Below, piece after piece: positions 493-21,519 of a stretch of DNA of 64,000 bases. A program made the translations under genes and the position numbers. Each line of letters begins with the position of its first letter. Positions within the stretch are counted from its first letter, which is position 1. This stretch comes from Polyangiaceae bacterium (GTDB lineage: Bacteria; Myxococcota_A; Polyangia; Polyangiales; Polyangiaceae). The DNA is taken from NCBI GenBank assembly GCA_044224495.1, contig JBGAKG010000005.1, positions 300,711 through 364,710 of the forward strand. The letters are read 5' to 3'. The notes beneath the pieces are model-generated. The model was not told the DNA's origin and did not search any database. It was given only the letters and a program-made list of their open reading frames with translations.

Positions 493-4654
<4,162 letters not shown>

Positions 4655-4789
4655 GCGCTTCGGGTGTTACGCCCGAAGGTCGTGCGCGGTTTCGGTCAGC
4701 TTCGGCGGCGAGGATACGGGAAGAGGATGAAATGTGGGAGAAAAGAGCTACCCGCGCTCCGTCCGGTCAGGGCGAGGCGGCGCGTCCGT

Positions 4790-4822
4790 CCTTGACAAGC
4801 GCGTGACCTTTCGGCACTTTCC
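4790..4822 (+). promoter_or_regulatory. possible sigma70-like promoter of tRNA-Phe
   Basis: TTGACA at 4790-4795 with a weak -10-like CACTTT 17 nt downstream, about 35 nt before the tRNA start. A 10-bp palindrome GAAGCGCTTC lies at 4833-4842. Confidence 0.2.
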
Positions 4823-4856
4823 GCGCCGCTCGAAGCGCTTCGGCGCTGCGGAGCAT

Positions 4857-4929
4857 GCCCAGGTAGCTCAGTTGGTAGAGCAGGGGATTGAAAATCCCCG
4901 TGTCGGCGGTTCGATTCCGTCCCTGGGCA
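4857..4929 (+). tRNA. tRNA-Phe (anticodon GAA)
   Basis: Clean cloverleaf by hand: acceptor GCCCAGG/CCTGGGC, D-loop AGTTGGTA, anticodon loop TTGAAAA giving GAA, T-loop TTCGATT. Serves as the integration target (attL). Confidence 0.9.
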
Positions 4930-4930
4930 C
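4888..4930 (+). repeat. attL core: 3' half of tRNA-Phe
   Basis: TTGAAAATCCCCGTGTCGGCGGTTCGATTCCGTCCCTGGGCAC, identical to 14661-14703. Confidence 0.85.
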
Positions 4931-4991
4931 GAAGAAACAAGGGGTTTCGTGATTCGAGACCTTCCACCGGGTACCCCGTTTTCCACGAGCT

Positions 4992-5010
4992 GGGGTACCG
5001 CCGGGGTACC
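4992..5010 (+). repeat. 19-bp repeat GGGGTACCGCCGGGGTACC, candidate integrase arm-type site (attL side)
   Basis: Exact copy at 14590-14608, about 55 bp from the attR core. A third GGGTACC lies at 4969. TTCCACGAG also occurs near both att ends (4982 and 14651). Confidence 0.45.
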
Positions 5011-5257
5011 GGGCCCGTAGGGCGCTCGACCCGAGGAACGGCCCAACCCCCCATCCGACGCCCGAAAGCGCGTCCTGCGTCATCCTGGGCGAACGCCACG
5101 AGCGTCTGCGGTCGACGTGTGGGCGATGCGCGGGTGCAGCTTGGCACAATCGCGGGGGCGCCAATAGTTGCCAGCGTTAGAGGGGGTGCTAATCCTGAGT
5201 AAAATCGATAAGTTACGACCTTGACGTGGCCAGGGCCTGCGCTATGTTCCCTCCAAC

Positions 5258-5443
5258 ATGGCACACCTTGGCACATCGGTCCCCCGTCTCCCTCCCGAGC
5301 TGCGGCGCGCCCACGTCTACCGGGTCCCGGTCAGCGCCATCGAGCGCGAGGCCATCGCCCGGATCGCGGCGGCCCGCGGCATCCCCGTGGCTCAGCTCCT
5401 CCGTGAGCTGGCGCTCGCCACCGCTCCGAAGGTGCGGGCATGA
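5258..5443 (+). CDS. small putative DNA-binding protein (61 aa)
   Basis: First ORF inside the element after attL. Basic and helical (IEREAIARIAAARGIPVAQLLRELA), consistent with a small regulator. Weak call. Confidence 0.35.
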   Translation: MAHLGTSVPRLPPELRRAHVYRVPVSAIEREAIARIAAARGIPVAQLLRELALATAPKVRA

Positions 5444-5589
5444 GGGCCGCGATCGTGGCGCTCGCTGAGCGCATCATCCGCGCCCTCGTCCCCCCGCCCC
5501 CGGGCGGAGATGGTGGCTTTCGCGTCGTCACTCGTGTCGATGAGTTCGGGCGCGAGCGCCGCACCTACGAGCCGCGAGGGTCCCGGTGA
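5440..5589 (+). CDS. small hypothetical protein (49 aa)
   Basis: ATG at 5440 overlaps the previous stop (ATGA) and ends where the next gene's GTG starts. Call rests only on gene packing. Confidence 0.25.
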   Translation: MRAAIVALAERIIRALVPPPPGGDGGFRVVTRVDEFGRERRTYEPRGSR

Positions 5590-6440
5590 GCACCACCTAC
5601 AACCCGAATTCTCGGGTCGTCCAAGCGACCTCGCCGGCACCGGTCGCCATCGCATCGAGCACGGGGGCAACCCCGATCGTCGTGACGACGGCGACGCCGC
5701 ACGGCTACGTGGCGGACGATTGCGTCCAGATCATCGGCCACGACCAAGCGGCGGCGAACGGCCTTTGGCAGGTCACCGTAGTCGACGCGACGCGCTTCTC
5801 CTTGAAGACCTCGATCGGAACTGGCGCGGGCGGGGCGATCGGGCAGGCGCAGGACTTCAGCGTCAACCCGCTGCTGACCCTCCCCGGCGACGGCGACCTG
5901 GAGAGCGCGTCCAGCGTCAACGCCCCCATCTCCGGGCAGGCGAACGTGGCGCCGTTCCTGTACCAGCGCGTCGGCAAGTACAAAACGCACGAGGTGTACC
6001 AGGCCGGGACGTTCCTCAGCGTCGGGAACGCGTTCAGCGCGACCGCGGTAGGCACCGCGACTTGGACCACGCTGACGGGATTGGGGAACGTGCTCAGCGC
6101 GCTCGCCGATCGCTATCTCGCCTCGGGCGACATCCTCGAAGTTCTTTTCACGAGCACGATCTTCGTCCAGCCCGCGCAGGAATTCGCGCTCGCGATCGGG
6201 CTCTCGCTGAACGGCGGGGCGGCGTCGCCCCAGAGCTACAGCGTGCGTACCGCGTCGAACGCGGGCGCGTCGTCGCTCGCCTTCCCCATCGCCTGCAGCG
6301 TCGTGATCGACTCCGGGTTCAGCGCCAACGATCGATTCGACCTCTCGGTCCTCGGCTACTCGCCCGCGGTCCCGGTCGGGAACCTCTCGCTGATGACCGG
6401 CTTCCAGCTGGAGTGCCGGCATTTAAGGAGCAACGCATGA
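5586..6440 (+). CDS. hypothetical Ser/Thr/Gly/Ala-rich protein, possibly a virion structural protein
   Basis: 284-aa ORF from the track with low-complexity beta-rich composition. Stop overlaps the next start (ATGA). Confidence 0.55.
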   Translation: MSTTYNPNSRVVQATSPAPVAIASSTGATPIVVTTATPHGYVADDCVQIIGHDQAAANGLWQVTVVDATRFSLKTSIGTGAGGAIGQAQDFSVNPLLTLPGDGDLESASSVNAPISGQANVAPFLYQRVGKYKTHEVYQAGTFLSVGNAFSATAVGTATWTTLTGLGNVLSALADRYLASGDILEVLFTSTIFVQPAQEFALAIGLSLNGGAASPQSYSVRTASNAGASSLAFPIACSVVIDSGFSANDRFDLSVLGYSPAVPVGNLSLMTGFQLECRHLRSNA

Positions 6441-6769
6441 ACCGACGAAACGAGATCGCCCGCACGCTTGTGGCCGAGGGCGTGAGCCCCTACTCGAAGA
6501 AGCTCCCCGCGCTCGTCGCAGCTCGGCTCCGCGCCGAGGAGGATGCCGACGCCGAGCTGCAGGGCGAGGAGATCGCCGAACAGGCCATCTCCGACGCGCG
6601 CCAGGCCCGCAAGGCTGCGCGCCGTCGCCGTGACATCGCGCGAGTCCAACGTCGGGTCGCCCAAGAGGGCGCGGCCGAAGCCGCGCCGCCGAAGCCGCGC
6701 ACGTTCGCGAGCGCCGCGGGTGACGTGCTCGAGGTGCACGCAGACGCGCGCGCGTGGGAGCGAGGCTGA
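6437..6769 (+). CDS. hypothetical charged/coiled-coil protein (110 aa)
   Basis: ATG at 6437 preceded by AAGGAG with a 6-nt spacer. Falls in the frame of ORF 5510..6769. Confidence 0.55.
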   Translation: MNRRNEIARTLVAEGVSPYSKKLPALVAARLRAEEDADAELQGEEIAEQAISDARQARKAARRRRDIARVQRRVAQEGAAEAAPPKPRTFASAAGDVLEVHADARAWERG

Positions 6770-6772
6770 TCC

Positions 6773-7072
6773 ATGTGGCAAGGGCTACGCGGCAGCATCA
6801 AGCGATTCGCCGGGTCCAGCGGCAACGTGGACCTTCCCGCGTGCGCTGCGGTCATCGCCATCAACGCGCACGCGACGACCGCGGGAAGCGTGACGTTCTG
6901 GGATCAAGCTGGCGGCTCCGTCACCGTCCCGGTCCCGGCGAACACGTGGTGGATCTTCGATCCAAAGCACGCGAACGCGATCGTTCAGAGGAGCGCGAGC
7001 TCCTACTCGCGGATCACGTTCGCGAGCACGGACAGCTACTTCGTCGAGGCCGTGAGCCCGATGGGGTTCTGA
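6773..7072 (+). CDS. hypothetical protein (99 aa)
   Basis: ORF from the track, tightly packed after the previous stop. Confidence 0.45.
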   Translation: MWQGLRGSIKRFAGSSGNVDLPACAAVIAINAHATTAGSVTFWDQAGGSVTVPVPANTWWIFDPKHANAIVQRSASSYSRITFASTDSYFVEAVSPMGF

Positions 7073-7136
7073 GAGTTCATCCCATTGTGGGATCCGGACA
7101 CAACGCCGTGACCCGGCCGGCAAAGCAGAGGACATC

Positions 7137-7739
7137 ATGAGCACGAAAGAGACCGACGCACTCCAACGCCAAGCGCTGGAGGAACAACTCGACCCGACCA
7201 AGACGATCGCGCGGCTCCGCGCAAACGCGGAGGTGAAGGTCGACCCGCGAAAGCGCGTCCTGTACCGGACGCCGACGCGCTGGAGCAGCGAGACATTCGT
7301 CGCGTGGGGCTACATGCTCCCCGGGTTCGGCGGCGCGCTGCGTGACGGCGAGTTCGTCGCCGCGGTGGCAACGCTCGCCCCGCGCATGCACGAGCCCGAC
7401 TGGCGCATCACCGCCGCGTTCGAGGATGCGGTGCTGTTCTCCGCTCCCCTCCTTGCCCGCATCGAAGCCCTTGTCATCTCGCCGGCGCGCCAGCGCGAGC
7501 TGGAAACCGCCTACCGTGGCGGGACCGCGCTGCGTGAGGTGCTGAACGCGGAGCTGCGGAAGGTTCACGCCGTCGTGGGTCACCACGCACTTGGACGTGC
7601 TCTCTCCGGGAAGATCCTCGGAGAGGTGCGGCGCGATCTCGTGCCCCTGAAGATCCTCGCCAAGGGCGAGCCCCTCCCCACGGTGGAGGAGATCTCCACC
7701 ATGAAGGAGATCGACATTCCGGCGCCGGGTGCGCTGTGA
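7137..7739 (+). CDS. hypothetical protein (200 aa)
   Basis: ORF from the track. Non-Arg-rich, balanced composition. Confidence 0.55.
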   Translation: MSTKETDALQRQALEEQLDPTKTIARLRANAEVKVDPRKRVLYRTPTRWSSETFVAWGYMLPGFGGALRDGEFVAAVATLAPRMHEPDWRITAAFEDAVLFSAPLLARIEALVISPARQRELETAYRGGTALREVLNAELRKVHAVVGHHALGRALSGKILGEVRRDLVPLKILAKGEPLPTVEEISTMKEIDIPAPGAL

Positions 7740-7981
7740 TCGTCGGTCGCCTGCAACGCGCGAGCGATCCACACGAGCCGCCGCGCTACGTCGACGTCGA
7801 TCTCCCCGAGGCGTTCGCGCTCGGGCTGTTCGAGAGCCACCACGAGCGGGGCGTGATCTTCTGCGCGGGGCGCGAGGGCTACGAGCCCCTGTTCCTCTTC
7901 CGCGCGGGAGAAGCGTACGTGCTCGCCGATGGCGAGCTAGGCGTGGTCACCGACTGGACCGTCGCCCGGTTCTGGAGCTGA
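7736..7981 (+). CDS. hypothetical protein (81 aa)
   Basis: GTG start overlaps the previous stop (GTGA). Confidence 0.45.
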   Translation: MIVGRLQRASDPHEPPRYVDVDLPEAFALGLFESHHERGVIFCAGREGYEPLFLFRAGEAYVLADGELGVVTDWTVARFWS

Positions 7982-7985
7982 GGCG

Positions 7986-8243
7986 ATGACCTTCCGAACC
8001 GGAGACCGCGCCGATCGCGACGTGCTCACGGTCGAAGGTCGCGTCATCAGCTGGGCGCACTCGCACGGCAAGGTCGAAGTGACGATGGCGGGGAAGCCCT
8101 TCGTCGTCACTGCGCACCGCAGCGGGAAACTGCGCATGAACCACGTTCACGTCCTGGAAGGCGACATGGTGAAGGTGGAGCTTTCACCCTTCGACCTCCG
8201 ACGCGGGCGAATCATCGAACGCGAGCGCTCGCCGCGCTCTTGA
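7986..8243 (+). CDS. infA-like: translation initiation factor IF-1 (InfA) family paralog carried by the mobile element
   Basis: VTAHRSGKLRMNHVHVLEGDMVKVELSPFDLRRGRIIER aligns to E. coli IF-1 ([39 protein letters not shown]). S1/OB fold, 85 aa. Confidence 0.7.
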   Translation: MTFRTGDRADRDVLTVEGRVISWAHSHGKVEVTMAGKPFVVTAHRSGKLRMNHVHVLEGDMVKVELSPFDLRRGRIIERERSPRS

Positions 8244-8371
8244 GACTCCGTGCGCGGAATGGTCCGCGCGCAGGAATAGGCCGCTCGCCGTCGGCGGCCC
8301 GGGTCGTTGTGCTCCATCCCCGACACCGCGTTCGTTCTCCGCGCGGGAGACGGCACCTTTTCAAAGACAGC

Positions 8372-8402
8372 GGCCCGAACCGGAGGTGACTCCGGCCGGG
8401 CC
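8372..8402 (+). terminator. GC-rich stem-loop between the infA-like and helicase genes
   Basis: GGCCCGAACCGGAGGTGACTCCGGCCGGGCC is a nested inverted repeat with no T-tract. Could be a terminator or attenuator. Confidence 0.2.
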
Positions 8403-8425
8403 GTCACACACGACGGAGTGTTCGC

Positions 8426-9850
8426 GTGTTTTCTACAGTAACCGCCGTACCGCTGGGTGCAACCAGCTCGAACGACAACGATGCGATCGTCATCGAACCT
8501 GGGCCCCCTGCGTGGCTCGACGATGCAGACGCCGATCGCGTGCTCGATGCCCAAGTCGACTCGCAAGCTCAGCCCCAAGACGAACCCTCGATGCCCGCCC
8601 GGCTCGGGTCTCACCTTGGCGATGCGCTTCTCCGCGCCCATCGGCGAGCGAACGGGAAGGAGCGGCCGGTACCCATCCCTTTCCCCTCGCTGGCGCCGCA
8701 CTTCGGCGGGGGCCTTTGGGCTGGCGTTCACTTCCTCGTGGCCGGGACGGGTCTCGGGAAGACGCAGCTAGGGCTGCAGGTGGGCCTGCATGCGGCGCGG
8801 GCGGGTGTGCCCGTGCTGTACTTGGGGCTGGAGCTGGAGCCGATGCAGATCGCCCTGCGCGCCATGGGCGACGCGTCCGGGGTGCCTTGGTCCAAGCTCT
8901 ACGTCGGCGACGCGCACCCGAACATGCTGGAGCGCGCGTCGGTGACGCTGGACGAGCTCGCGGCGCTCCCCTTCCACACCGAATTCGGGCGCCCCAACGG
9001 CTGGCCACAGGAGCGAATCACGGAGCTTGGGGCGAAGATGCGCGCCTACTACCCGGAGGCGGATGGGCCGGGGTCACGGCCGATTCTCGTGGTGCTCGAC
9101 TTCCTGCAACTCGTCGGCGACACCACCGGGGAGACGCTGGAGATCCGGGAGCGCATCGGGCGAGCGGCCTACAGGGCGCGCGCCTTGGGCGCGGAGAAGA
9201 ACATCTCCGTCCTGGTCATCTCGGGCGTGAGCCGCGAGGCGCGCCGCACCCTCGCCGACGCCGTAGCGGCGGCCGGGTTCGCCTACGACGAGGACGAGCA
9301 CGGCCGGCCGGTGAACCGTCGGATCCTCACCCCCGATGCCCTGCAGGGGCTGGCGAAGGAGAGCGGCGACGTGGAGTTCTCCGCCGACACCCTCAGCGTC
9401 ATCTACAAGGAGCCGGCGACGTTCGAGCCCGGCGGGGGCGTTGACGTGGTGTTCGCCACGGTGAAGGCGCGCGCGTGCCGCGAGACGTGGAGTCCGCTCC
9501 GCTTCACCGGCTTCACCTTCCACGAGCCCGAGGACCGCGGCGGGCGCCTCGTGGACGCGTGGAAAGCCAAGGACGATGCCCGCGCCCAGGCGAAGGAGCA
9601 ACGAGCCCAGGCCAAGCTGGACGCCAAGAGGGCCAAGCTCGTCGCCGACGCCGCCGCGGTCGCCGCCTACGTCCAAGCCAACCCCGGGTGCACGGTGCGC
9701 GCGGCCCGCGTGAACGCCGTAGGCGACGCCAGCGGCCGCTGGACCCGCGCCGTTGCCCTCCTCGGCCGTGCCCTCGCGACCGACGACAAGAAGCGGCTCA
9801 CCCTCGAACCTGCAGCCTTGTCGGACGAGGTGCGCTCATGTCTCACCTGA
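8426..9850 (+). CDS. DnaB-like (RecA-fold) replicative helicase / RepA-like ATPase
   Basis: Walker A GTGLGKTQL, DnaB H2-like VLDFLQLV and SGVSREA. No DnaB N-terminal domain. GTG start at 8426 is uncertain. Confidence 0.65.
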   Translation: MFSTVTAVPLGATSSNDNDAIVIEPGPPAWLDDADADRVLDAQVDSQAQPQDEPSMPARLGSHLGDALLRAHRRANGKERPVPIPFPSLAPHFGGGLWAGVHFLVAGTGLGKTQLGLQVGLHAARAGVPVLYLGLELEPMQIALRAMGDASGVPWSKLYVGDAHPNMLERASVTLDELAALPFHTEFGRPNGWPQERITELGAKMRAYYPEADGPGSRPILVVLDFLQLVGDTTGETLEIRERIGRAAYRARALGAEKNISVLVISGVSREARRTLADAVAAAGFAYDEDEHGRPVNRRILTPDALQGLAKESGDVEFSADTLSVIYKEPATFEPGGGVDVVFATVKARACRETWSPLRFTGFTFHEPEDRGGRLVDAWKAKDDARAQAKEQRAQAKLDAKRAKLVADAAAVAAYVQANPGCTVRAARVNAVGDASGRWTRAVALLGRALATDDKKRLTLEPAALSDEVRSCLT

Positions 9851-9990
9851 GCGTGGAAGAAAAGCGTGGACGTGGAAAATCCCCCCCATACCCCCCCACC
9901 GTTCCACGTTCCACGGTGGACGGCCGGGGGCCTACCGTGGAGCCGTGGACGGGCGTGGAATTCCACACCTTCCACGCTTTCCACGCCTAC
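9851..9990. repeat. iteron-like cluster of at least 11 copies of heptamer CGTGGA(A/C/G) in both orientations (putative replication origin)
   Basis: Directly downstream of the helicase stop, for example GCGTGGAAG, CGTGGACGTGGAAAA, GTTCCACGTTCCACGGTGGACGG, CCGTGGAGCCGTGGACGGGCGTGGAATTCCACACCTTCCACGCTTTCCACG. Followed by a poly-C tract and a relatively AT-rich 250 bp. Confidence 0.5.
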
Positions 9991-10241
9991 CCAACGGGAG
10001 GGGGACGGAAAGGAGGGGAGTCGAGCGGAAGGGGCAATTCTCGTACCACTGTAATTCGGTGGGTTGGCACGTTCCTTTCCATGGCCGAACGACGTTTCGG
10101 GACGGCACGGCGCTTGCCGTGCGGTCGGCGCGTGCATCCTGCAGAATTCCAGCGTGAGCGGCGCTCAAGTTGTCCCGTAAGTAACAGGCCGGGACACCCC
10201 TGGCGTGAGGCGAAAAACGTAAGTCTTTTCCGTTCGCATAC

Positions 10242-10269
10242 TTGCAAACTTTTTGGGACGCGCTACATT
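10242..10269 (+). promoter_or_regulatory. putative sigma70-like promoter for the serine recombinase gene
   Basis: TTGCAA-N16-TACATT sits 7 nt upstream of ATG 10276. The region is unusually AT-rich for this genome. Confidence 0.3.
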
Positions 10270-10275
10270 CCACCC

Positions 10276-10860
10276 ATGGGCCAAACCGCCGTGTATTTCC
10301 GCGTGAGTAGCCGTGGTCAGGACTTCGCCACCCAGCGGGACGCGGTGATGAAGGTCGCCCCCGCGGAGGCGTCGGTCTACCAAGAGAAGGCCAGCGCCAA
10401 GACGAAAGACCGGCCGGAGCTGAGCCGCCTACTCGCCGACGTGCGGGCCGGCATCGTGGATCGGGTCATCACCTTCAAGCTGGACAGGCTCACGCGCTCG
10501 GGTGTCGCCGACACCTTCGCCGTGGTGGATGCCATCCGGAAGGCTGGCGCAACCCTCCACTGCGTGGCCGATGGGCTCGTGGTGAAGCCGGGCGAGGACG
10601 TGACCAGCGACGTCCTGGTGTTCGCCCTGGGCCTTGCCGCCAAGCTGGAGCGCACCGCGAAGAACGACCGCATCGCCGCCGCACGGACGCGCCTGGAGGC
10701 CAAGGGCGAGGCATGGGGCCGGCCCGCCAGGGTCACCCCTGCCCAGCTCGACACCATCAAGCGCATGCGTGCCAAGGGCGACAGCGTGCGCACCATCGCC
10801 GCCGCGTTGGGCGTACCGCGCAGCACCATCGGGCGCGCGGTGAAGGAGCTCGGGTCATGA
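10276..10860 (+). CDS. serine recombinase (resolvase/invertase family)
   Basis: N-terminal catalytic motif VYFRVSSRGQD, about 194 aa, C-terminal HTH (RTIAAALGVPRSTIGRAVKE). Confidence 0.8.
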   Translation: MGQTAVYFRVSSRGQDFATQRDAVMKVAPAEASVYQEKASAKTKDRPELSRLLADVRAGIVDRVITFKLDRLTRSGVADTFAVVDAIRKAGATLHCVADGLVVKPGEDVTSDVLVFALGLAAKLERTAKNDRIAAARTRLEAKGEAWGRPARVTPAQLDTIKRMRAKGDSVRTIAAALGVPRSTIGRAVKELGS

Positions 10861-10938
10861 CCCGGGGGGCGCCTGTTTTCCAACCGACCCCCCTCCCCCT
10901 GGGCGGGGCCGTCTCTCCGGCAATTTTGCGAGGTAGCC

Positions 10939-11481
10939 ATGTATAAGCCGCGCGGTGGTGCTCCCACGATTGAGGTTGCCACGGTCGACCGGCAGCCTGA
11001 GCCTGTTCCGGGTGATGTTCCTGCGCCTGCGCCGCGAGGGTTCGGCAAGCTCAGTCCGAGCGAGGCGGGGAAGCTGGGCGGGGTCGAGCGGTGGAGGAAG
11101 TACAAGGCGCAGCAAGCGCTGGGGTTGAAGCTGCCCAAGGGGAGCAAGTTCGCGACGTACCGGACGCAGGCGAACGACTTCCTGACCGCGCACCTCTCGG
11201 AGCTGGCGAAGGTGGCGGGGGGGTCGGTTGGGCCTGGGCCATCCTCCATGGCTGCTTCGGCGGCGCTGCAGCTGGCGGCGTCGCGGTGGATGTTCGACAC
11301 GGCGGCGGCGGCGGGGGACCCGGCGCTGATGAAGCAGGCGAGCACGCTCGCGAACGACTCGAGGCAGAACCTGCTTGCGGCCTACGAGCTGGCGGTGCGC
11401 GAGGCGCAGGCGCGCGGGAAGTACGGGGCGACGAACGCGCGGACGTTGGCCGAGCGCTTGCTCGGGGAAGGGGTCGAGTGA
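10939..11481 (+). CDS. hypothetical protein, possible terminase small subunit by position
   Basis: 180-aa ORF immediately upstream of the TerL-like gene. No diagnostic motif. Confidence 0.4.
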   Translation: MYKPRGGAPTIEVATVDRQPEPVPGDVPAPAPRGFGKLSPSEAGKLGGVERWRKYKAQQALGLKLPKGSKFATYRTQANDFLTAHLSELAKVAGGSVGPGPSSMAASAALQLAASRWMFDTAAAAGDPALMKQASTLANDSRQNLLAAYELAVREAQARGKYGATNARTLAERLLGEGVE

Positions 11482-11483
11482 CC

Positions 11484-12974
11484 ATGGGCAAGCTGGCGGA
11501 GAAGTTCTTCAAGTTCGATGCGCGGCTGGAGAAGGCGGGGCAACCGCCGTGCTCGCCGTGGTGGCGAGCGGAGCTGACCAAGTTCTTCGACGCGTACGAG
11601 AGCGGCGCTGCGGATGAGTACTGGACATGCGTTGGACGCGGCGGCGCCAAGTCGACGGCGCTGTACAAGGTCGCGCTGTTCTTCACCCTGTTCGGCGAGT
11701 TCGACATCCCGAAGCACGAGACGCACTACGCGACACTCATCTCGCGCAACCGGACGGAGGCGACGAAGGGCGCGGCCATCATCGCGCGGTGGCTCGACGC
11801 GCTGGGGGTGAAGCACGATCCGACGTCCGACGTCATCCACATTGCCGGCACGCAACGCGGCATCCGCATCTTGAGCGCCAGCGTCGCGGGCGCCTCCGGT
11901 TGGCGCGCGTTCTTCGTCGGCGCGGACGAGTTCAGCAAGTGGAACCGCGAAGGTGAAGCCGCGATGCTGGACGCGGACGAGGTGCTTGCGAGCGCTCGCG
12001 CGCAGACGGCGACGCATGCGCGGGCGCCGCTGTTCGTCGCGAGCACGCCGTGGATCCAGGAAGGGAGCTTCTACGAATCGATCGTCGGAGGGTCCGTTGA
12101 CGGGCGCGTGGTGTCGGGCCCTGCCCCCTCGTGGGCAGCGAACCCGGCGATCACCGAGGCGCAGACGCGGAGGAAGGAGCCGAACCCCGCGCGCTGGCGC
12201 CGTGAGTACGCGTGCGAGTTCTCGGCCACCTTCGATGCTGAGTACTTCTCCGACGAGCTCGTGATGAAGTGCACGGACCCGGGGCGCCTCTCGCGTCCCG
12301 AGCCATCGGGGCGCTACATGCACGTCGTGGCCATCGACCCCGCGTTCGTGTCGGACGGGTTCGGCATTGCCATCGCGCACGTGGAGGACCGCGAGGGCGG
12401 CGCCGCCGTGGTGGTGCTCGACTACGTGCACAGCCTGCAGGGCGACCGCGGCGGCGGCGGGCTGACCCCGGCCTACGCCATCGCCAACGTGGCGCACCTT
12501 CGCTACGCCTTCCCCGGCGGGCGCGCGGTGCTGAGTGACCAGCATGCAGCCGAAGCGCTCGCGCCGATGTTCCTCGAAAGCGGGATGCTCTTGCTCCCTG
12601 AACCGTGGTCGCAGTCGTCCAAGGTCGAGCGGTTCGAGTTCGTCCGCAACCTCATGCGCGATGGTCGCCTCCGTCTTCCCGACGATCCGTTCCTTCGTCG
12701 CGAGATTGCGAACATCGGCGTACGTCGCACGGGCGCGGGTGTGGAGTCGATCTCCAGTCGCGGGCGCGATGACCGCGTGTTCGCCGCGGTGCAAGCGGTC
12801 TGGCACGCGGCCCGCGGTGGCGCTCTCCTCGCTGCAGGGTCGACCGTGCAAACGTCCACGTTCGGCACGCGCCGGATAAGCTTGGTCGCGACGGGAAGCG
12901 TCACGGGCCGTGGTGGTCCTGGTTACGCTACGGTGGAGAGTGAGATCGCTGCGAGCATCGGGCGGGACAGGTAG
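11484..12974 (+). CDS. phage terminase large subunit-like protein
   Basis: Deviant Walker A CVGRGGAKST, Walker B FFVGADEF, nuclease-domain motif HVVAIDPAFVSDGFGIAIAHVE. About 496 aa from ATG 11484. Confidence 0.6.
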   Translation: MGKLAEKFFKFDARLEKAGQPPCSPWWRAELTKFFDAYESGAADEYWTCVGRGGAKSTALYKVALFFTLFGEFDIPKHETHYATLISRNRTEATKGAAIIARWLDALGVKHDPTSDVIHIAGTQRGIRILSASVAGASGWRAFFVGADEFSKWNREGEAAMLDADEVLASARAQTATHARAPLFVASTPWIQEGSFYESIVGGSVDGRVVSGPAPSWAANPAITEAQTRRKEPNPARWRREYACEFSATFDAEYFSDELVMKCTDPGRLSRPEPSGRYMHVVAIDPAFVSDGFGIAIAHVEDREGGAAVVVLDYVHSLQGDRGGGGLTPAYAIANVAHLRYAFPGGRAVLSDQHAAEALAPMFLESGMLLLPEPWSQSSKVERFEFVRNLMRDGRLRLPDDPFLRREIANIGVRRTGAGVESISSRGRDDRVFAAVQAVWHAARGGALLAAGSTVQTSTFGTRRISLVATGSVTGRGGPGYATVESEIAASIGRDR

Positions 12975-12982
12975 GAGGGACC

Positions 12983-13279
12983 ATGAGCAACGGTAAGCGG
13001 CCTACGGCGCATTGCGCCGCATTTCTGCAGAGAATGGCAACGTCAACCGAGCCGATGGGAAAGCGGCTTCACGACGCCTTGCACGCTGAGATCGTCATAC
13101 TTCCCATCGATGGGTTTCCAGCGCAGGTGCACGCCGACTTGAAGAACGTTCTTGCACGCATGTCGGGAATGCCCGCTCTCTCGCACGAGGAAGCCGTCAA
13201 GCTCGCACGTCAGGCCGTGCACATCATGACGGCTACCATCTCGGGTCTGTACGACGACCTGCCCACCGAAGAGTCGTGA
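12983..13279 (+). CDS. hypothetical protein (98 aa)
   Basis: ATG preceded by GGAGGG. Confidence 0.45.
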   Translation: MSNGKRPTAHCAAFLQRMATSTEPMGKRLHDALHAEIVILPIDGFPAQVHADLKNVLARMSGMPALSHEEAVKLARQAVHIMTATISGLYDDLPTEES

Positions 13280-13280
13280 C

Positions 13281-13775
13281 ATGGCCTTCCTTCGACGCTG
13301 GCTTGACCCGCAGACGGTCCCGGGCGCTCCGCTGCCTGATGACGTCGCGCCCCTCGTGGTGGAGGCGCCCAAGAGGCGCAGGGCGAAGAACGGAACGAAG
13401 GTGGAACCGACCGGGCGCTACCTGACCGCGAAGGCCGTGGCCGGGGAGCTGGGCGTATCGCTCGCCCGTGCCTACGAGATCATGAAAGAGTGCACGCGCG
13501 TGATCGCTGGCCGGTCCGTGCGCGTGAGTCGTGCTGCATTCGAGAGCTGGAAGAAACGACACGAGGAAGGACCCTTGGCATGCGTGAGCCCCTCTACCAA
13601 AAGCACGGGATCTGGTGGTGCCGCGTCCGCAATCCGAATGGTGGGCGAGCGCTCCGCTTCTCCACCGGAACGAAAGACCGGACCGCGGCCGTCACGCGCT
13701 GGAAGCAACTGGAGCGAGAGCGCATCTCGGGTGCCGATCCGGCCACGAACCAAACCACGCTCGGAGATGCCCTAG
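13281..13775 (+). CDS. excisionase/AlpA-like HTH DNA-binding protein
   Basis: HTH RYLTAKAVAGELGVSLARAYEIMKE. Lies upstream of int. The 3' end overlaps the int start (13580) in another frame, so the true stop is uncertain. Confidence 0.4.
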   Translation: MAFLRRWLDPQTVPGAPLPDDVAPLVVEAPKRRRAKNGTKVEPTGRYLTAKAVAGELGVSLARAYEIMKECTRVIAGRSVRVSRAAFESWKKRHEEGPLACVSPSTKSTGSGGAASAIRMVGERSASPPERKTGPRPSRAGSNWSESASRVPIRPRTKPRSEMP

Positions 13776-14641
13776 ACGAACGGATCGAGGAACGGAAAGC
13801 GGCCGGGCGTGCGGACGGCACGATCCACATGCTCAAGGTGAAGGCACGCCAGCTAGCCCGTGTGCTCGGCTCCGAAACGAAACTCTCTCGCATCGGCGCC
13901 GCGGAGATCGATCACTTCGTCCAGCAACGCCTACAGGATGGCGCGGCGCGGACGACGGTGCAGAAGGAGCTCGTCACACTGCGCGGGACCTTGAAGCTCG
14001 CGCGCCGGCGCAAGCTCTACCCCCACGACGTGGCGAGCGTCATGCCCATCGACTTCTCAGCCGACTACCGGCCGCGTTCGCGCGCGCTGAGCGAGACGGA
14101 GATCGGGAAGCTCTTGGATGCGCTTCCGCCGGAGCGTGCCGCGGTGGTGGCGCTCATCCTCGCCACGAGTGCGACCTACCCGAGCGAGCTTGCCAGGCTC
14201 GAGCCTGATGACGTCGACATGAAGGCTTGGACCGTGCTCCTCCGAGGAACCAAGAGGCACACGAGGTATCGCGTTGTGCCGATCGTCTCGTACGCGCGGC
14301 CGTGGGTGAAGCTCGCCGTCCCCCATCTACCGCTACGGCCGTGGACGAACGTCCGGCGCGACTTGGACGCGGCGTGCGAGTCAGCCGGCATCCCCCGATG
14401 CTCGCCGAACGACCTGAGGCGCACGACGGCGACCCTGCTCCGCGCGCACGGCGTCGAGCCTTCCCTCATTGCTGCCGTGCTCGGCCACGTGGACAGCCGC
14501 ATGGTGGAGCGGGTGTACGGCAGGCTCACGCCGGACCAGCTCGCGCCCCTCTTGGATGGGCGCATTCGGGAGCACCGAAGCCGAGCGAAGGGGTACCGCC
14601 GGGGTACCAAGCGACCGCGAAATGCGAAAAACGCCGCATGA
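13580..14641 (+). CDS. int: tyrosine-type site-specific integrase
   Basis: N-terminus MREPLYQKHGIWWCRVRNPNGG is typical of P4-like integrases. C-terminal catalytic region HGVEPSLIAAVLGHVDSRMVERVYGRL has the R/H/Y residues. Ends 20 nt before the attR core. Confidence 0.85.
   Translation: MREPLYQKHGIWWCRVRNPNGGRALRFSTGTKDRTAAVTRWKQLERERISGADPATNQTTLGDALDERIEERKAAGRADGTIHMLKVKARQLARVLGSETKLSRIGAAEIDHFVQQRLQDGAARTTVQKELVTLRGTLKLARRRKLYPHDVASVMPIDFSADYRPRSRALSETEIGKLLDALPPERAAVVALILATSATYPSELARLEPDDVDMKAWTVLLRGTKRHTRYRVVPIVSYARPWVKLAVPHLPLRPWTNVRRDLDAACESAGIPRCSPNDLRRTTATLLRAHGVEPSLIAAVLGHVDSRMVERVYGRLTPDQLAPLLDGRIREHRSRAKGYRRGTKRPRNAKNAA
14590..14608 (+). repeat. 19-bp repeat GGGGTACCGCCGGGGTACC (attR-side copy, inside the int 3' end)
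   Basis: Exact copy of 4992-5010. Confidence 0.45.
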
Positions 14642-14660
14642 AGCGGTGATTCCACGAGGC

Positions 14661-14703
14661 TTGAAAATCCCCGTGTCGGCGGTTCGATTCCGTCCCTGGG
14701 CAC
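14661..14703 (+). repeat. attR core: duplicated 3' half of tRNA-Phe
   Basis: 43/43 identical to 4888-4930. No tRNA 5' half upstream. Confidence 0.85.
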
Positions 14704-14706
14704 AGC

Positions 14707-14748
14707 GCTTCCCCTGCGCATGCGCATGCGCATGCCCCTGCCCGCCCC
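14707..14748. repeat. partial copy of the GCATGC-rich repeat family (R1) just outside attR
   Basis: CCTGCGCATGCGCATGCGCATGCCCCTGCCCGCC matches units at 43021-44460. Confidence 0.5.
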
Positions 14749-14768: not shown

Positions 14769-14981
14769 CTACCTGCCTCTTCGCTCGTACTTGTACTTCC
14801 TGAAGTCGAGGAGCTTGCAGACGGGGGGATCGGTCCTGGGGTTCACCTCGACGAGATCGAGGCCTTCCTTCATCGCGAGGCGGAGCGCCTCCGCGAGGGG
14901 CATGACTCCGAGCATTTCTCCCTTCGATCCGATCACGCGGACCTCGGGCGTGCCACGGAGGTCTCCGTTCTTGCGCGTCAT
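14769..14981 (-). CDS. stand-alone IF3 N-terminal-domain protein (truncated infC-like, 70 aa)
   Basis: MTRKNGDLRGTPEVRVIGSKGEMLGVMPLAEALRLAMKEGLDLVEVNPRTDPPVCKLLDFRKYKYERRGR matches the IF3 N-domain and stops where the linker begins. No C-domain follows. Confidence 0.55.
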   Translation of the reverse strand: MTRKNGDLRGTPEVRVIGSKGEMLGVMPLAEALRLAMKEGLDLVEVNPRTDPPVCKLLDFRKYKYERRGR

Positions 14982-15373
14982 CGAGGCTCGGGCGGGTAGA
15001 CGGTGAAGACGAGCTCGCCGCCGACGTCGACCACGGCGCGCAACAGCGGTGAAGGGATCGCGAGATTCATGCTCTCGCGAGCGTGACCCGCCTGGACGCC
15101 GACATCGAAGCGCCGCGACGTCGCCGAGTCCCACGCTTCGCGGGGAGCCCCCGAGGTTCGGCGAACGAGCCGGGTGAACGCACGGAGGCAGCCCACGACC
15201 GTCCGCGAGGCGCGCTGCGACATGAGCTCCATCGTCGCCTCGTGGAACGTTCCAAGTCGCCGCTGGTGGAGGACGACGACCTCCGCGTCCCAAGCGGTGA
15301 GCAGCGCCGCGAGGCTGCGCCGCGAGCGAAGGACCAGGTCGACATTGAGGAACGCGGTGGGCTCGATGAGCAA
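14978..15373 (-). CDS. hypothetical protein (131 aa, TTG start)
   Basis: High GC3. Stop overlaps the start of the IF3-N gene. Confidence 0.4.
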   Translation of the reverse strand: MLIEPTAFLNVDLVLRSRRSLAALLTAWDAEVVVLHQRRLGTFHEATMELMSQRASRTVVGCLRAFTRLVRRTSGAPREAWDSATSRRFDVGVQAGHARESMNLAIPSPLLRAVVDVGGELVFTVYPPEPR

Positions 15374-18228: not shown

Positions 18229-18376
18229 GCCCCACAACTTCGTGCCGAAGCACGATTCATGCAAGCCCGTTCGGCACGGCTTGCGCCCCGGCCGCAGCGG
18301 CTGCACCCGGCGGAGCCGTCCCTCGCCCAGCGCGGGTGTCGGAGCCCCGGTCCGCGACTTGCACGGTTGCGGTGCC

Positions 18377-18955
18377 ATGCAAGCCGTCGCCGTCTTCTAC
18401 GCCACCCGCGAAGGTCAAGCCCGGAAGGTTGCCGACCGGATCGCGGGCGCGCTCATCGCGCGCGATCTCGAGGTCGCCGTCCACCACGTCAGCGATCCCG
18501 AGGGCGATCCCGCGCTCGGGCTCGCGGACGCCACAGTGCTCGTCGCGTCGGTCCACAACGGCAAGCACGAGCGCGAGATGGTCGACTTCGTGCAGAGGCA
18601 CGCGCGCGTCCGCGAGATCCCGTCGTCGTTCGTCTCGGTGTGCGTGACGGAGGCGATCGTCGAGAGCCCGGCCGCATCACCGAAGGACCGCCGCGCCGCG
18701 ATCCGCCACATCGGAGACCAGATCCACGAGTTCCTGGACGCGACGCAGTGGACGCCCGCGCACATCCTCCCCGTCGCGGGCGCGCTGATGTACACGCACT
18801 ACAACTTCCTCGTGCGCTTCGGCATGAGCCGGCTCGCCGAGCGAGCGGGGCTTCCGACCGACACGACGCACGATCACGAGCTCACCGATTGGGGGTCGCT
18901 CGACCAGTTCGCAGCGCGCCTCGCGCACGAGCTCACCGGCGAGCCGATGACCTGA
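18377..18955 (+). CDS. flavodoxin-like protein (HemG-like)
   Basis: MQAVAVFYATREGQARKVADRIA flavodoxin N-terminus. 192 aa. Confidence 0.65.
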   Translation: MQAVAVFYATREGQARKVADRIAGALIARDLEVAVHHVSDPEGDPALGLADATVLVASVHNGKHEREMVDFVQRHARVREIPSSFVSVCVTEAIVESPAASPKDRRAAIRHIGDQIHEFLDATQWTPAHILPVAGALMYTHYNFLVRFGMSRLAERAGLPTDTTHDHELTDWGSLDQFAARLAHELTGEPMT

Positions 18956-20611
18956 TCACTTCGCCGGCTTCGGCTTCCCGTCCTTCATCGCGAGCGTGAT
19001 GCGTTTGCCGCCCACGAGCGCGAGCGTGAAGGCACCATCGTCGACCGCGAGCGGCGTGCAGCCGACGGCGAGCTCGGAGCCGTCGACCGGCGCGGGCGCT
19101 CCGGCGTCGCCCAGGACGCGCGCCGCCGGGAGCTCTGTCGACCAGAGGACCCCCTGTTCGTCACCCGCCCACGCCGTCACCGCGTGCTCGTTCGCGAGCG
19201 CGAGCACCGATCCGTCGCACGCGACGGCGAGCGCCAGCGTCGTCGTCCCCGCCGGTGGCGGCAGGACGCCCGCGCCGGGCTTGACCAGGAACGGCATGTT
19301 GCTCGTCATGAAGCCGGACTGCTGCGTCCAGTCGATCTGCCACGTGCTCTTGCCCTTCGCCGGCGCCTCGAGATCGAACGTGTTCTTCCCGCTCGCCGCG
19401 CGCGACGTGCAGTGGCACGCCGGGACGACGTGCGTGGCCGGCGGGGGCGGCGGCGGTTTGAGCTTCGGCGTCGTCACCGCCGCCGCGCTCGCCGTGGACG
19501 CGCCGCCGCTCTTCTTCTTGTCCCCCGCCGTCAGAACCACGATCCCGGAGACCACGCCGATGAGCAGCACCGAGCCCAAGGCGACGAAGAACTTCTGCCG
19601 GCCCTCGGACTCGCGTTCGCGCGCACGCTGCTCCTCGCGCTCGCGCTTGTCGGCCTCCGAGCGCTCCTTGCGCAGGCGCTCCGCCTCGACGCGCTCGGCG
19701 CGCTGGCGGGCGTGCTCGGCGTCGCGCGCCGCTTTCTCCGCGCGGAGGTCCGCTTGCTGTTCGGCGCTCCGCCGTTCGCGCTCGCGCTCCTTCTGGGCCT
19801 GCGCCCGCATCGGCGATGGACCGGCGAAGAGCATCCAGATCCCGTCGCCGACCGGCTCTTTTCCGGAGAGCTTCGACCACAACCGGTCCGGGATGCGCGA
19901 GACCGTCTTGCAGAACGTGCACGTCACGAACTTCGTCCCGTCGGCCGCCGGGAGCGCTGCGCTGCAGGACGGGCACTGGATCGCGATCGCTCCCTCGGTC
20001 GACGCGACCTTCACCGGGGCGCGGTCGGAGCGGTGCTCCGCCGCGACGACGGCGCGGAGCGCGCCCTTCGTCATCGAGAGCGCCGCGGACGGGACCGTGT
20101 AGCGCGCGCTCGTACCGCACGCGCCGCACGCGAGCGTCGCCTCGCGCCCCTCGCCGACGGTGACGTCCAACGGCGCCTTGCACGACTCGCAGAGCGGCCG
20201 CCCGGGGCTGACGGTCACACGGAGGGCGTTGGGGCCGTCGACCGCGTGCGCGACCGACGTGCGCCCCACGCCCACGTCCTCCAGGTCGGGCGCGAGCCCG
20301 CCCCCGCGATCCGCGTGGAGGTCGGCGACGCCGTGCGCGAAGCCGAGCGCGCCGAACCACGCGCTGACCTCGAAGGCTTGCTCGAGCCCGCAGCGCCCGC
20401 AGGTGACGCCGCCGTCCATGTCGACGTGGTCGAGCGGAACGGCGAAGGCGCACATTCGGCACGTGAACGTGCAGTCGACTGCGACCCAGGCTTCCTCGGG
20501 CGACTCGGTGATCGCGAGCGACGGGCCGACGTCGTGCTTGCACCGCGCACAGGTACCGGAGGCGCGGCCACGTGCAGCGCCGCATGCGCGGCACAGGTCG
20601 AGCTGGGTCAT
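18956..20611 (-). CDS. membrane protein with multiple N-terminal zinc-ribbon (CxxC) motifs and a charged coiled-coil
   Basis: Starts MTQLDLCRACG at 20611, overlapping the LysR stop. Repeated CxxC pairs, an RE-rich coil, then a TM helix. The upstream 360 aa of the 908-aa ORF are junk in the LysR antisense frame. Confidence 0.55.
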   Translation of the reverse strand: MTQLDLCRACGAARGRASGTCARCKHDVGPSLAITESPEEAWVAVDCTFTCRMCAFAVPLDHVDMDGGVTCGRCGLEQAFEVSAWFGALGFAHGVADLHADRGGGLAPDLEDVGVGRTSVAHAVDGPNALRVTVSPGRPLCESCKAPLDVTVGEGREATLACGACGTSARYTVPSAALSMTKGALRAVVAAEHRSDRAPVKVASTEGAIAIQCPSCSAALPAADGTKFVTCTFCKTVSRIPDRLWSKLSGKEPVGDGIWMLFAGPSPMRAQAQKERERERRSAEQQADLRAEKAARDAEHARQRAERVEAERLRKERSEADKREREEQRARERESEGRQKFFVALGSVLLIGVVSGIVVLTAGDKKKSGGASTASAAAVTTPKLKPPPPPPATHVVPACHCTSRAASGKNTFDLEAPAKGKSTWQIDWTQQSGFMTSNMPFLVKPGAGVLPPPAGTTTLALAVACDGSVLALANEHAVTAWAGDEQGVLWSTELPAARVLGDAGAPAPVDGSELAVGCTPLAVDDGAFTLALVGGKRITLAMKDGKPKPAK

Positions 20612-21519
20612 GAGCGGAGCGTAACCGCATCCGCGCGGAGTGCGTCGAGCAGCGCGCCGATGCGCGCGTTTCCGCGTTGCTCCACGCGATGGATCGCCCA
20701 GATCGAGACCGGCGGCGAGCGCCACTGGGGCAAGATGCGCCGGAGCCGGCGCGCCGCGAGATCGTCGGCCACGAGCCAGTCCGGCAGAAGCGCCACGCCG
20801 AGCCCCGCCAGCGCCGCTTCGCGGAGCGCCGCCGGAGCCGTCGCCGCGAAGCGCTCGCGGAGAGCGATGGTCCGAACGACGGCCGGGTTGCCTCGAGAGG
20901 GCTCCAGCGTCCAGGTCGGTGCCGCTCCCTGCTGGCGGAGCTGGACCAGCGCGTCGTGGTCGGCGAGCTGCGCCGGGTCCCGGAGCGCGCTCCGGCGCGT
21001 TCGCAGGTACGCCGGCGCCGCGACCAGCCAGCGATGGAACGTCGCGACCACCGGCGCGACGACGACCGTCGAGTCCGGCGGCGCGACCCCGCCCCGGAGC
21101 GCGACGTCGACGCCGTCCGCGATGAGGTCCACGAGCGCGTCCTCCAAGCGGAGCTCGACGACGAGCGCAGGTCGGCTCGCGACGAGCGGCGCGAGCCGTG
21201 GCATCAGCCAGCGCTGACCGAGCGTGACCCCGGCGCTGACGACGAGACGCCCGGCGACGCCGCGCGCGCGACTCGCGGTCCGGGCATCCTCGACCTCGCG
21301 CAGGATGCGAACCGCCCGCAGGTACATCTCCCGCCCCGCGTCCGTCACCGACATGCGCCGCGTCGATCGCAGCACGAGCGCGGCGCCCACCTCGCGCTCC
21401 AGCTCCGCGAGCTGACGGCTCACCGCCGCGAGCGACACGCGCCGGGCCCGCGCCGCGGCGGACAGGCTCCCGAGCTCGACCACCCGCGCGAACGTCTCGA
21501 GCCCGGACAGGAAGCTCAC
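20608..21519 (-). CDS. LysR-family transcriptional regulator
   Basis: HTH LETFARVVELGSLSAAARARRVSLAAVSRQLAELEREVG. Confidence 0.85.
   Translation of the reverse strand: MSFLSGLETFARVVELGSLSAAARARRVSLAAVSRQLAELEREVGAALVLRSTRRMSVTDAGREMYLRAVRILREVEDARTASRARGVAGRLVVSAGVTLGQRWLMPRLAPLVASRPALVVELRLEDALVDLIADGVDVALRGGVAPPDSTVVVAPVVATFHRWLVAAPAYLRTRRSALRDPAQLADHDALVQLRQQGAAPTWTLEPSRGNPAVVRTIALRERFAATAPAALREAALAGLGVALLPDWLVADDLAARRLRRILPQWRSPPVSIWAIHRVEQRGNARIGALLDALRADAVTLRS

Follow-up and report, generated by a model that had tools for sequence, protein, structure and literature searches.

Most phage satellites described to date are from Proteobacteria and Firmicutes, to which Actinobacteria have recently been added. 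Phage-inducible chromosomal islands (PICIs; SaPIs and Gram-negative PICIs) are elements of approximately 10 kb that integrate at a fixed site by means of a tyrosine integrase, have an Xis/AlpA-like gene beside int, encode a replication helicase whose gene is followed directly on its 3' side by an iteron origin, and carry a packaging module that redirects packaging, without any capsid genes. Capsid-forming PICIs (cf-PICIs), in contrast, encode a major capsid protein, a portal, a protease/scaffold and an HNH protein, and are represented in SatelliteFinder by 11 core components (PMC10085698). The same study points out that phages alone contain tail components consistently (PMC10085698). Tail-related genes in satellites are only now emerging, for instance a tape-measure gene in EPIPs (PMC12822802), and the satellite MiniFlayer encodes a tail-fibre protein (PMC10690885). 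VEIMEs (integrative mobile elements encapsidated in virions), for which packaging of multimers (concatemers) has been described (PMC9618062), and PICMIs (minimalist chromosomal islands that are phage-inducible) are integrative elements of small size that have int, Xis/AlpA and replication genes but lack genes for a capsid. Here we describe a 9.8-kb mobile element that occupies the tRNA-Phe gene of a myxobacterium (Polyangiaceae). It is located in a stretch of 64,000 nt of Polyangiaceae bacterium, assembly GCA_044224495.1, contig JBGAKG010000005.1, positions 300,711-364,710 (hereafter the window). In our preferred reading, to which we assign a probability of roughly 0.7, the element is a helper-dependent phage satellite that would package itself with its own terminase into the capsids of a helper and may re-target these with a fibre of its own.

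The element is integrated at tRNA-Phe by a tyrosine integrase. The 3' 46 nt of the intact tRNA gene (attL core) are repeated with one mismatch at the other end of the element (attR core), and within this repeat 43 nt are exact (4888-4930 and 14661-14703), in agreement with the perfect 43-bp direct repeat reported in the preliminary description of this DNA. A 31-nt core of the repeat is present in 2 copies in the 64 kb, against 0 expected in shuffled sequences, so that the repeat is not a dispersed sequence. A third, degenerate copy downstream, which would point to a tandem or older island, was searched for and not found. The integrase gene stops at 14641, 16 nt short of the 46-nt repeat and 19 nt short of its exact part (20 bp according to the preliminary description).

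To find the corresponding site in related genomes, the kinase-FGE protein encoded beside the tRNA was used as a query in a search with one genome per species. This gave 38 loci, all of Myxococcota and mostly of Polyangiaceae/Polyangiales, and in 12 of the 13 closest loci tRNA-Phe adjoins the kinase gene. The closest relative, L001, is a metagenome-assembled genome of the Polyangiaceae with approximately 81% nucleotide identity. It matches window 499-4930 as far as the end of the tRNA, and window 14658-14744 over the same tRNA end and the following 41 nt. The tRNA-Phe of L001 therefore runs straight into the sequence beyond attR; 4931-14657 is absent there, and L001 represents the empty site that had been predicted. 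Site-specific insertion in tRNA-Phe is thus borne out by the repeat, by the empty site and by the attP of a sister element (see below). In six other relatives (L002, L003, L004, L009, L012 and L014; ~9740-9950), tRNA-Phe lies beside the same kinase gene in the orientation opposite to that in the window and in L001. The G + C content was also considered as a marker of the island, and was uninformative (68.0% in the island versus 70% in the flanks).

The attP of a sister element is present on L039, a 9,209-bp metagenome contig without host flanks, which carries the closest relative of the element's large terminase (67% identity). In L039 the end of int is followed by the 19-bp palindrome GGGGTACCGCCGGGGTACC, a 46-nt core, 25 nt, and the palindrome again. 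The core is identical to the 3' part of tRNA-Phe, and the next 25 nt are identical to window 4931-4955. The same palindrome has only 2 copies in the window (0 expected), and the pair that flanks the core in the L039 attP is split in the window between the two element ends. The palindromes are therefore candidate arm sites of the integrase. Gene J is truncated at its start in L039, so that this contig is not closed. The joined attP, put forward earlier as a check on excision, was thus found in the sister element and not seen for the element itself.

The integrase (Int) contains the catalytic residues K, R-II, H-III and Y. The position of Arg-I is occupied by Tyr (box I, ATSATYPSELARLEPDDVD) and that of His-II by Asn. 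Loss of catalytic residues had been named beforehand as evidence that would speak against a mobile element, and it was found in part, for these two positions. However, the Int of L039 (L039 2177-3226; 77% identity) has kept both substitutions, and since this sister element with its attP junction carries the same variant, the variant is not an argument for inactivity. For the gene adjacent to int (gene M), the Xis/AlpA-like assignment of the preliminary description is suggested by a low-scoring PHROG_66 match; Pfam gave no match, and the position of the gene and its conservation in L039 are consistent with the assignment. The M reading frame, with a long putative C-terminal extension, overlaps int by 195 nt in another frame, and this overlap is kept in L039 (1968-2357 versus 2177 onwards).

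The packaging module consists of the large terminase subunit (TerL, gene K) and the upstream gene J. The TerL family profile matches TerL nuclease domains in the PDB at 2e-9, and Walker A (G51-R-G-x-x-K56-S57), Walker B (D148-E149) and the nuclease residues D285, D352 and D430 are invariant. Among 5.8 billion proteins this TerL has only 24 relatives. A search of the INPHARED phages returned only a cyanophage TerL of 25% identity (and nothing for gene B), and the TerL profile, run against IMG/VR, found no relative above 33% identity. Closer relatives, P0008 and P0009 (~50% identity), are present on the phage contigs L045 and L040, which also encode Portal_Mu, an S49 protease, the Mu gpT capsid gene and Gp36. 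In a distance tree, these phage TerLs form the sister clade of the satellite TerLs. On the six contigs L040-L045, TerL has an unusual arrangement, on the strand opposite to the flanking J homologue, the ribbon-helix-helix (RHH) gene and the portal/head genes.

Gene J is located directly upstream of TerL, in the same orientation, in at least six loci (L058, L059, L064, L065, L068 and L070), and J homologues adjoin TerL in the phages L040/L041. The J family has 466 representatives, and J has no match in Pfam, PHROG or NCBIfam; no part of its alignment is conserved strongly enough to serve as an IMG/VR query. On the basis of this synteny, J may be the small terminase subunit (TerS).

Homologues of portal, capsid, protease, sheath, tube, tape measure, baseplate or lysis genes were not found in the island with Pfam, PHROGs and NCBIfam. 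In addition, phage loci were compared to the window by tblastx; unfiltered, this gave noise in the GC-rich DNA, and the comparison was repeated with score and length filters. In the filtered comparison of related phage contigs to the whole window only B, D, J and K matched, and it follows that the island has no homologue of their portal, capsid, protease, sheath, tube or baseplate genes. The preliminary description, which had recognised no portal, capsid or tail, was thus right about portal and capsid and not about the tail, as B and D are homologues of genes in the fibre slot and the neck module of phages, respectively.

Gene B encodes a protein with an N-terminal anchor, a helix and a C-terminal TNF/C1q-like jelly-roll head, a fold of the trimeric-fibre type. 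The family has 26 members of uniform length, in which the N-terminal half is conserved and the head variable. B homologues (46-62% identity) are placed after gpJ-like and gpI-like baseplate genes and before lysis genes, on contigs of contractile-tailed phages that also encode sheath, tube, tape measure, Gp36 and gpT. The N-terminal domain (residues 20-92) was found on 110 IMG/VR contigs, and beside the same baseplate genes in at least 9 of these. The homologue of D in L050/L051 has Mu Gp36 (head completion) on one side and gene S (tail completion) on the other, and from this position D would have a neck-module function. Profile searches of PDB and PHROG with D gave nothing usable, and it has no family or fold assignment.

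The element resembles PICIs in all traits listed in the first paragraph, from size, fixed-site integration and the gene beside int to the helicase with its iteron origin, the packaging module and the lack of capsid genes. It differs from them in four respects. It has a large terminase, whereas PICIs have TerS, Ppi, Rpp or Cpm (types for which no Pfam, PHROG or NCBIfam match was found in the element). Its int is at the 3' end of one co-oriented string of genes, without a divergent int/regulator pair or a 5' int-alpA. It contains fibre and neck-module homologues, which are by definition not found in PICIs, and no primase domain was detected in it. With cf-PICIs and the Streptomyces satellites MulchRoom and MiniFlayer it has in common a TerL of its own with a small upstream partner; their head-tail joining protein may have a counterpart in D, to judge by its gene position. 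Unlike these elements, it has no matches to a capsid protein, portal or protease, either in the family searches or in the comparison with related phage contigs, and a scaffold and an HNH protein are likewise absent. The element falls outside the definitions of both PICI and cf-PICI. VEIMEs and PICMIs, with which it shares the gene content given above, have at most TerS homologues or 'motor-like ATPases' and are marine; moreover, they are defined by their presence in virions, whereas this element is known here from its genes. Markers of P4-like satellites (sid/psu/delta, alpha primase-helicase, epsilon) had no Pfam, PHROG or NCBIfam match. The element stands out by its TerL in the absence of a capsid, by accessory genes for fibre and neck, by its IF-1 paralogue and by an Int in which Tyr replaces Arg-I. 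Classical PICIs bring TerS or interference and no capsid, and cf-PICIs a whole head; this element brings a motor, with or without fibre and neck, and no shell. Elements of this kind are known; the design and host phylum of this one are new. A full-text literature search for phage satellites in myxobacteria or Myxococcota gave nothing relevant.

The element is not alone. The core order helicase, origin, recombinase, J and TerL is found again in L039, the P0005 contig, L073 and L046/L047, with the Xis-like gene and int after TerL on contigs that reach far enough. Conservation within the family is highest in J-TerL. The P0005 contig contains two adjacent elements, one with an IF-1-like gene. In more distant relatives (L046), TerL is followed by genes of 270-880 aa without assignment. 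L059 is a 14.45-kb relative with a 605-aa protein in the position of the replication gene, J, TerL (51% identity), an RHH gene and an IF-1-like gene. Its integrase gene overlaps tRNA-Asp, and an exact repeat of 21 bp from the 3' end of tRNA-Asp marks the two ends of the element. In total three att copies were seen in L059 (3960-3981, 4106-4126 and 18558-18578); the third copy, 146 bp further out, is 91% identical, which suggests that it was left behind by a previous insertion there. Integration of this type is familiar from the myxophage Mx8, a complete 49-kb phage, whose target in its myxobacterial host is a tRNA gene's 3' end and whose attP is located at the 3' end of int or within it. The element likewise occupies a tRNA 3' end and has one arm-type palindrome inside int, and the overlap of int with tRNA-Asp in L059 is a further likeness. 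Judged by gene content, these loci are probably a so far undescribed family of phage satellites, small in size (9-14 kb), that is present in Polyangiaceae and in other Myxococcota and of which the present member is integrated and probably active.

The preliminary description had listed a replication module, a terminase and recombinases, and all of these are present (H with its iterons, K, I and Int). Helicase H is 71% identical overall to the helicase of L039, with 70-88% identity in the core and only 30-47% at the termini. Directly 3' of H, in a non-coding gap, the hexamer CGTGGA is clustered in both orientations, against a background of 92 copies on both strands of the 64-kb window. L039 has the same helicase-origin layout at the same place, with different iterons. 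The divergent termini of H together with the different iterons form the pattern that would be expected of a co-evolving pair of initiator and origin. The slot after the origin is occupied by a resolvase in the P0005 contig, L046 and L073, as it is here by the serine recombinase I, and by a 402-aa tyrosine recombinase in L039 (L039 7934-9142). This suggests that the recombinase in this slot may have a conserved role such as multimer resolution.

Because the 70% G + C content of the window swamps lists of open reading frames (ORFs) with spurious frames, genes were called by analysis of the G + C content at third codon positions (GC3). Between the repeats this gave 14 clear genes, all on the + strand, and perhaps one extra ORF of 49 aa (Table 1). 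Of the 16 co-oriented genes in the preliminary description, the common orientation is therefore retained and the number is not. For TerL, B, G and Int (13580-14641), identical proteins are found in a public gene prediction.

Table 1. Features of the element and its insertion site (positions in the window; aa, amino acids; HTH, helix-turn-helix)
Feature	Position	Strand	Evidence or remark
tRNA-Phe(GAA), intact	4857-4930	+	ARAGORN; Rfam tRNA 71 bits at 4857-4929
attL core, 3' 46 nt of tRNA-Phe	4885-4930	+	Direct repeat
19-bp palindromic repeat GGGGTACCGCCGGGGTACC, candidate P' arm site	4992-5010	.	62 bp inside attL
Two sigma-70-like promoter matches	5141-5248	+	Consensus scan, weak; the sole ones in the island; just upstream of A
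A, 61-aa RHH protein (NikA/MobC-like), candidate regulator	5258-5443	+	Pfam NikA-like E 4.7e-4, below cut-off
B, 284-aa tail-fibre / receptor-binding protein homologue	5586-6440	+	Homologues in phage fibre slot
C, 110 aa, helical, charged	6437-6769	+	GC3 frame
D, 99-aa homologue of phage neck-module gene	6773-7072	+	57% identity to L050/L051 7-300; 33% to L052/L053
E, 200-aa ORFan	7137-7739	+	Largest ORF without assignment
F, 81 aa	7736-7981	+	GC3 frame; no matches
G, 85-aa IF-1 paralogue (translation initiation factor; S1/OB fold)	7986-8243	+	Pfam eIF-1a 2.3e-12
H, DnaB-like (RecA-fold) replicative helicase, presumed initiator	8426-9850	+	Pfam DnaB_C 1.7e-12; PHROG_19; exact start uncertain
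Non-coding gap	9851-10275	.	Low GC3 in all frames
Iteron cluster, presumed origin	9852-9985	.	10 x CGTGGA in 134 bp, both orientations, directly 3' of H
I, small serine recombinase (resolvase/invertase), C-terminal HTH	10276-10860	+	Pfam Resolvase 1.9e-26 and HTH_7; PHROG_125 2e-36
J, 180-aa conserved TerL partner, candidate small terminase / packaging-specificity subunit	10939-11481	+	Synteny with TerL
K, large terminase (TerL), ATPase and nuclease domains	11484-12974	+	PHROG_2 3.5e-13
L, 98 aa	12983-13279	+	GC3 weak; no matches
M, Xis/AlpA-like HTH protein	13281-13775	+	PHROG_66 2.5e-4; HTH at ~13380-13520; kept in L039
Int, tyrosine recombinase, 353 aa	13580-14641	+	PHROG_1 1.7e-43; Pfam Phage_integrase 7.5e-13
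Second copy of 19-bp palindrome, P arm	14590-14608	.	Inside int 3' end, 50 bp before attR core
attR core, copy of tRNA-Phe 3' part	14658-14703	+	46 nt, 1 mismatch

Genes B-G, the block between attP and the helicase, are not conserved in L039 and are therefore regarded as accessory. C has no family match in Pfam, PHROGs or NCBIfam; E likewise has no family match, and found only itself among 5.8e9 proteins. The assignment of G to IF-1 is supported by NCBIfam infA (62.3 bits, just above the cut-off of 61.15), and IF-1-like genes recur in relatives (the P0010 element; L059 14059-14358). A, upstream of this block, also has a weak NCBIfam TraJ/MbpA match, and RHH ORFs resembling A adjoin TerL in L040-L044, L059 and L039. 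PADLOC found no defence system among the small genes. With Rfam only the tRNA was found in the island, and no non-coding RNA in the 425-bp non-coding gap.

Based on these comparisons, the following cycle can be proposed for the satellite. Integration, the step that the repeat, the empty site and the attP of L039 show, took place by recombination, by Int, of an attP (the 46-nt tRNA-like core with the two 19-bp palindromes) with the 3' end of tRNA-Phe; the tRNA stays intact because the element supplies a replacement 3' end. Excision of the circle would require Int together with the Xis-like protein M. H is then expected to fire the origin at the iterons that directly follow the helicase gene, and multimers would probably be resolved by the serine recombinase I. 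J-TerL would recognise the satellite DNA and package it into procapsids of a helper with a Mu-type portal and head. For a unit of 9.8 kb in a head of helper size, either multimers are packaged or capsids are remodelled by one of the unassigned proteins; by analogy with VEIMEs, multimers in helper-size heads would be the simplest way for a genome of this size to fill the capsid. Finally, D and the baseplate-anchored fibre B, with its divergent receptor-binding head, may be built into the particle, whose adsorption range could change as a result.

That the element is a satellite rather than a full prophage, as the preliminary description already suggested, is the best reading of an island of 9.8 kb in which matches to phage contigs are limited to B, D, J and K. 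Its alternative label of a phage-plasmid-like element is not supported, because a full phage gene set (head, tail, lysis) is absent. Another possibility is a decayed prophage, in which a complete temperate phage with a Mu-like head has lost its head, tail and lysis genes and kept int, TerL, the fibre and a few others. The odd mix of virion genes is consistent with such decay, as is the identity of 43-62% between B, D, J and K and genes of real phage contigs. However, a remnant of this kind is at variance with perfect 43-bp att repeats and ORFs that are all intact and co-oriented, and with an element that has its own iteron origin, helicase and resolvase. Furthermore, the same compact small core is found in at least five independent loci (37-67% TerL identity), one of which has an attP junction, and the satellite TerLs form a clade of their own, sister to the phage TerLs. 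Decay of a prophage is thus considered very unlikely.

A phage-independent integrative element, plasmid-like or mobilisable, is considered very unlikely. It would replicate from the iterons, be resolved by the serine recombinase and be mobilised by conjugation through the RHH protein A, with the phage genes as cargo. J-TerL, however, is conserved more than any other part of the family and hence not cargo, and no relaxase or coupling protein was found in the Pfam, PHROG and NCBIfam searches. The module of origin, helicase and resolvase does resemble that of plasmids, and A has weak NikA-like, TraJ and MbpA matches; these RHH matches are below the family cut-offs, and the same kind of RHH adjoins TerL in phage contigs. 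Conjugative mobilisation, which the NikA-like RHH had brought to mind, was rejected, as no relaxase was found. Least probable of the readings weighed here is an autonomous miniature virus, with a capsid and a portal diverged beyond recognition among C, E, F and L. These four ORFs are indeed without homologues or fold assignment, and the distant relative L046 has unassigned genes of 270-880 aa after TerL. But with 81-200 aa the unassigned ORFs are too short to encode a portal or a capsid protein of the HK97 fold, and they are not conserved in L039. In addition, such a virus would possess one fibre gene and no baseplate, tube or sheath genes, and at 9.8 kb it would be smaller than the smallest known tailed-phage genome of 11.6 kb (bioRxiv 10.1101/2025.06.18.659913).

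The helper-dependent satellite that we prefer is itself confronted with several difficulties. Packaging, mobilisation and the identity of the helper are inferred from gene content, and functions hidden in C, E, F and L could alter this view. No helper prophage was found in the 64-kb window by comparison with related phage contigs. The contigs with close homologues of B and D may belong to phages with another TerL lineage, and B and D are not present in the sister element L039, so that they are accessory and not part of the core. The all-helical model of J has no match to TerS in fold or sequence, and the integrase is without the canonical Arg-I. Finally, the attP junction of L039 could derive from a circular form, from a concatemer or from integrated copies in tandem. 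Satellite and phage sequences do occur together: L039 and the phage contig L049, which has a B homologue, are from the same sample (3300076572), and so are the P0005 satellite contig and the phage L076 (3300047160).

If the satellite reading is correct, TerL alone can serve as a hijacking module, and satellites can carry receptor-binding proteins of their own, which bears on the crossing of host ranges. A more far-reaching version, for which we would offer somewhat less than even odds, is that of a new satellite family in Myxococcota that hijacks only the capsid and tail of its helper and relies on its own TerL. In this version some members would add a neck protein and a fibre that re-address the helper particle to hosts selected by the satellite, and the IF-1 paralogue would bias translation during the takeover. 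As markers for finding further elements and their helpers, the J-TerL clade, the palindromic 19-bp arm sequence and the att sites in tRNA-Phe and tRNA-Asp are available.

Some minor observations concern the flank beyond attR. Directly past attR there is a (GCGCAT)3 tandem repeat (window 14716-14735). A 70-aa ORF on the - strand (window 14769-14981), 66 bp outside attR, encodes only the N-terminal domain of translation initiation factor IF-3 (Pfam IF3_N, 5e-24) together with the beginning of the linker. With the IF-1 paralogue of the island, two translation-initiation-factor fragments are thus present within 7 kb. The IF3_N ORF is missing from L001, where the homologue of window 15083-15358 stands closer to the tRNA. 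A second indel near the island, of approximately 2.4 kb (window 18269-20628), is also missing from L001, in which its flanks are contiguous (L001 6155/6152).

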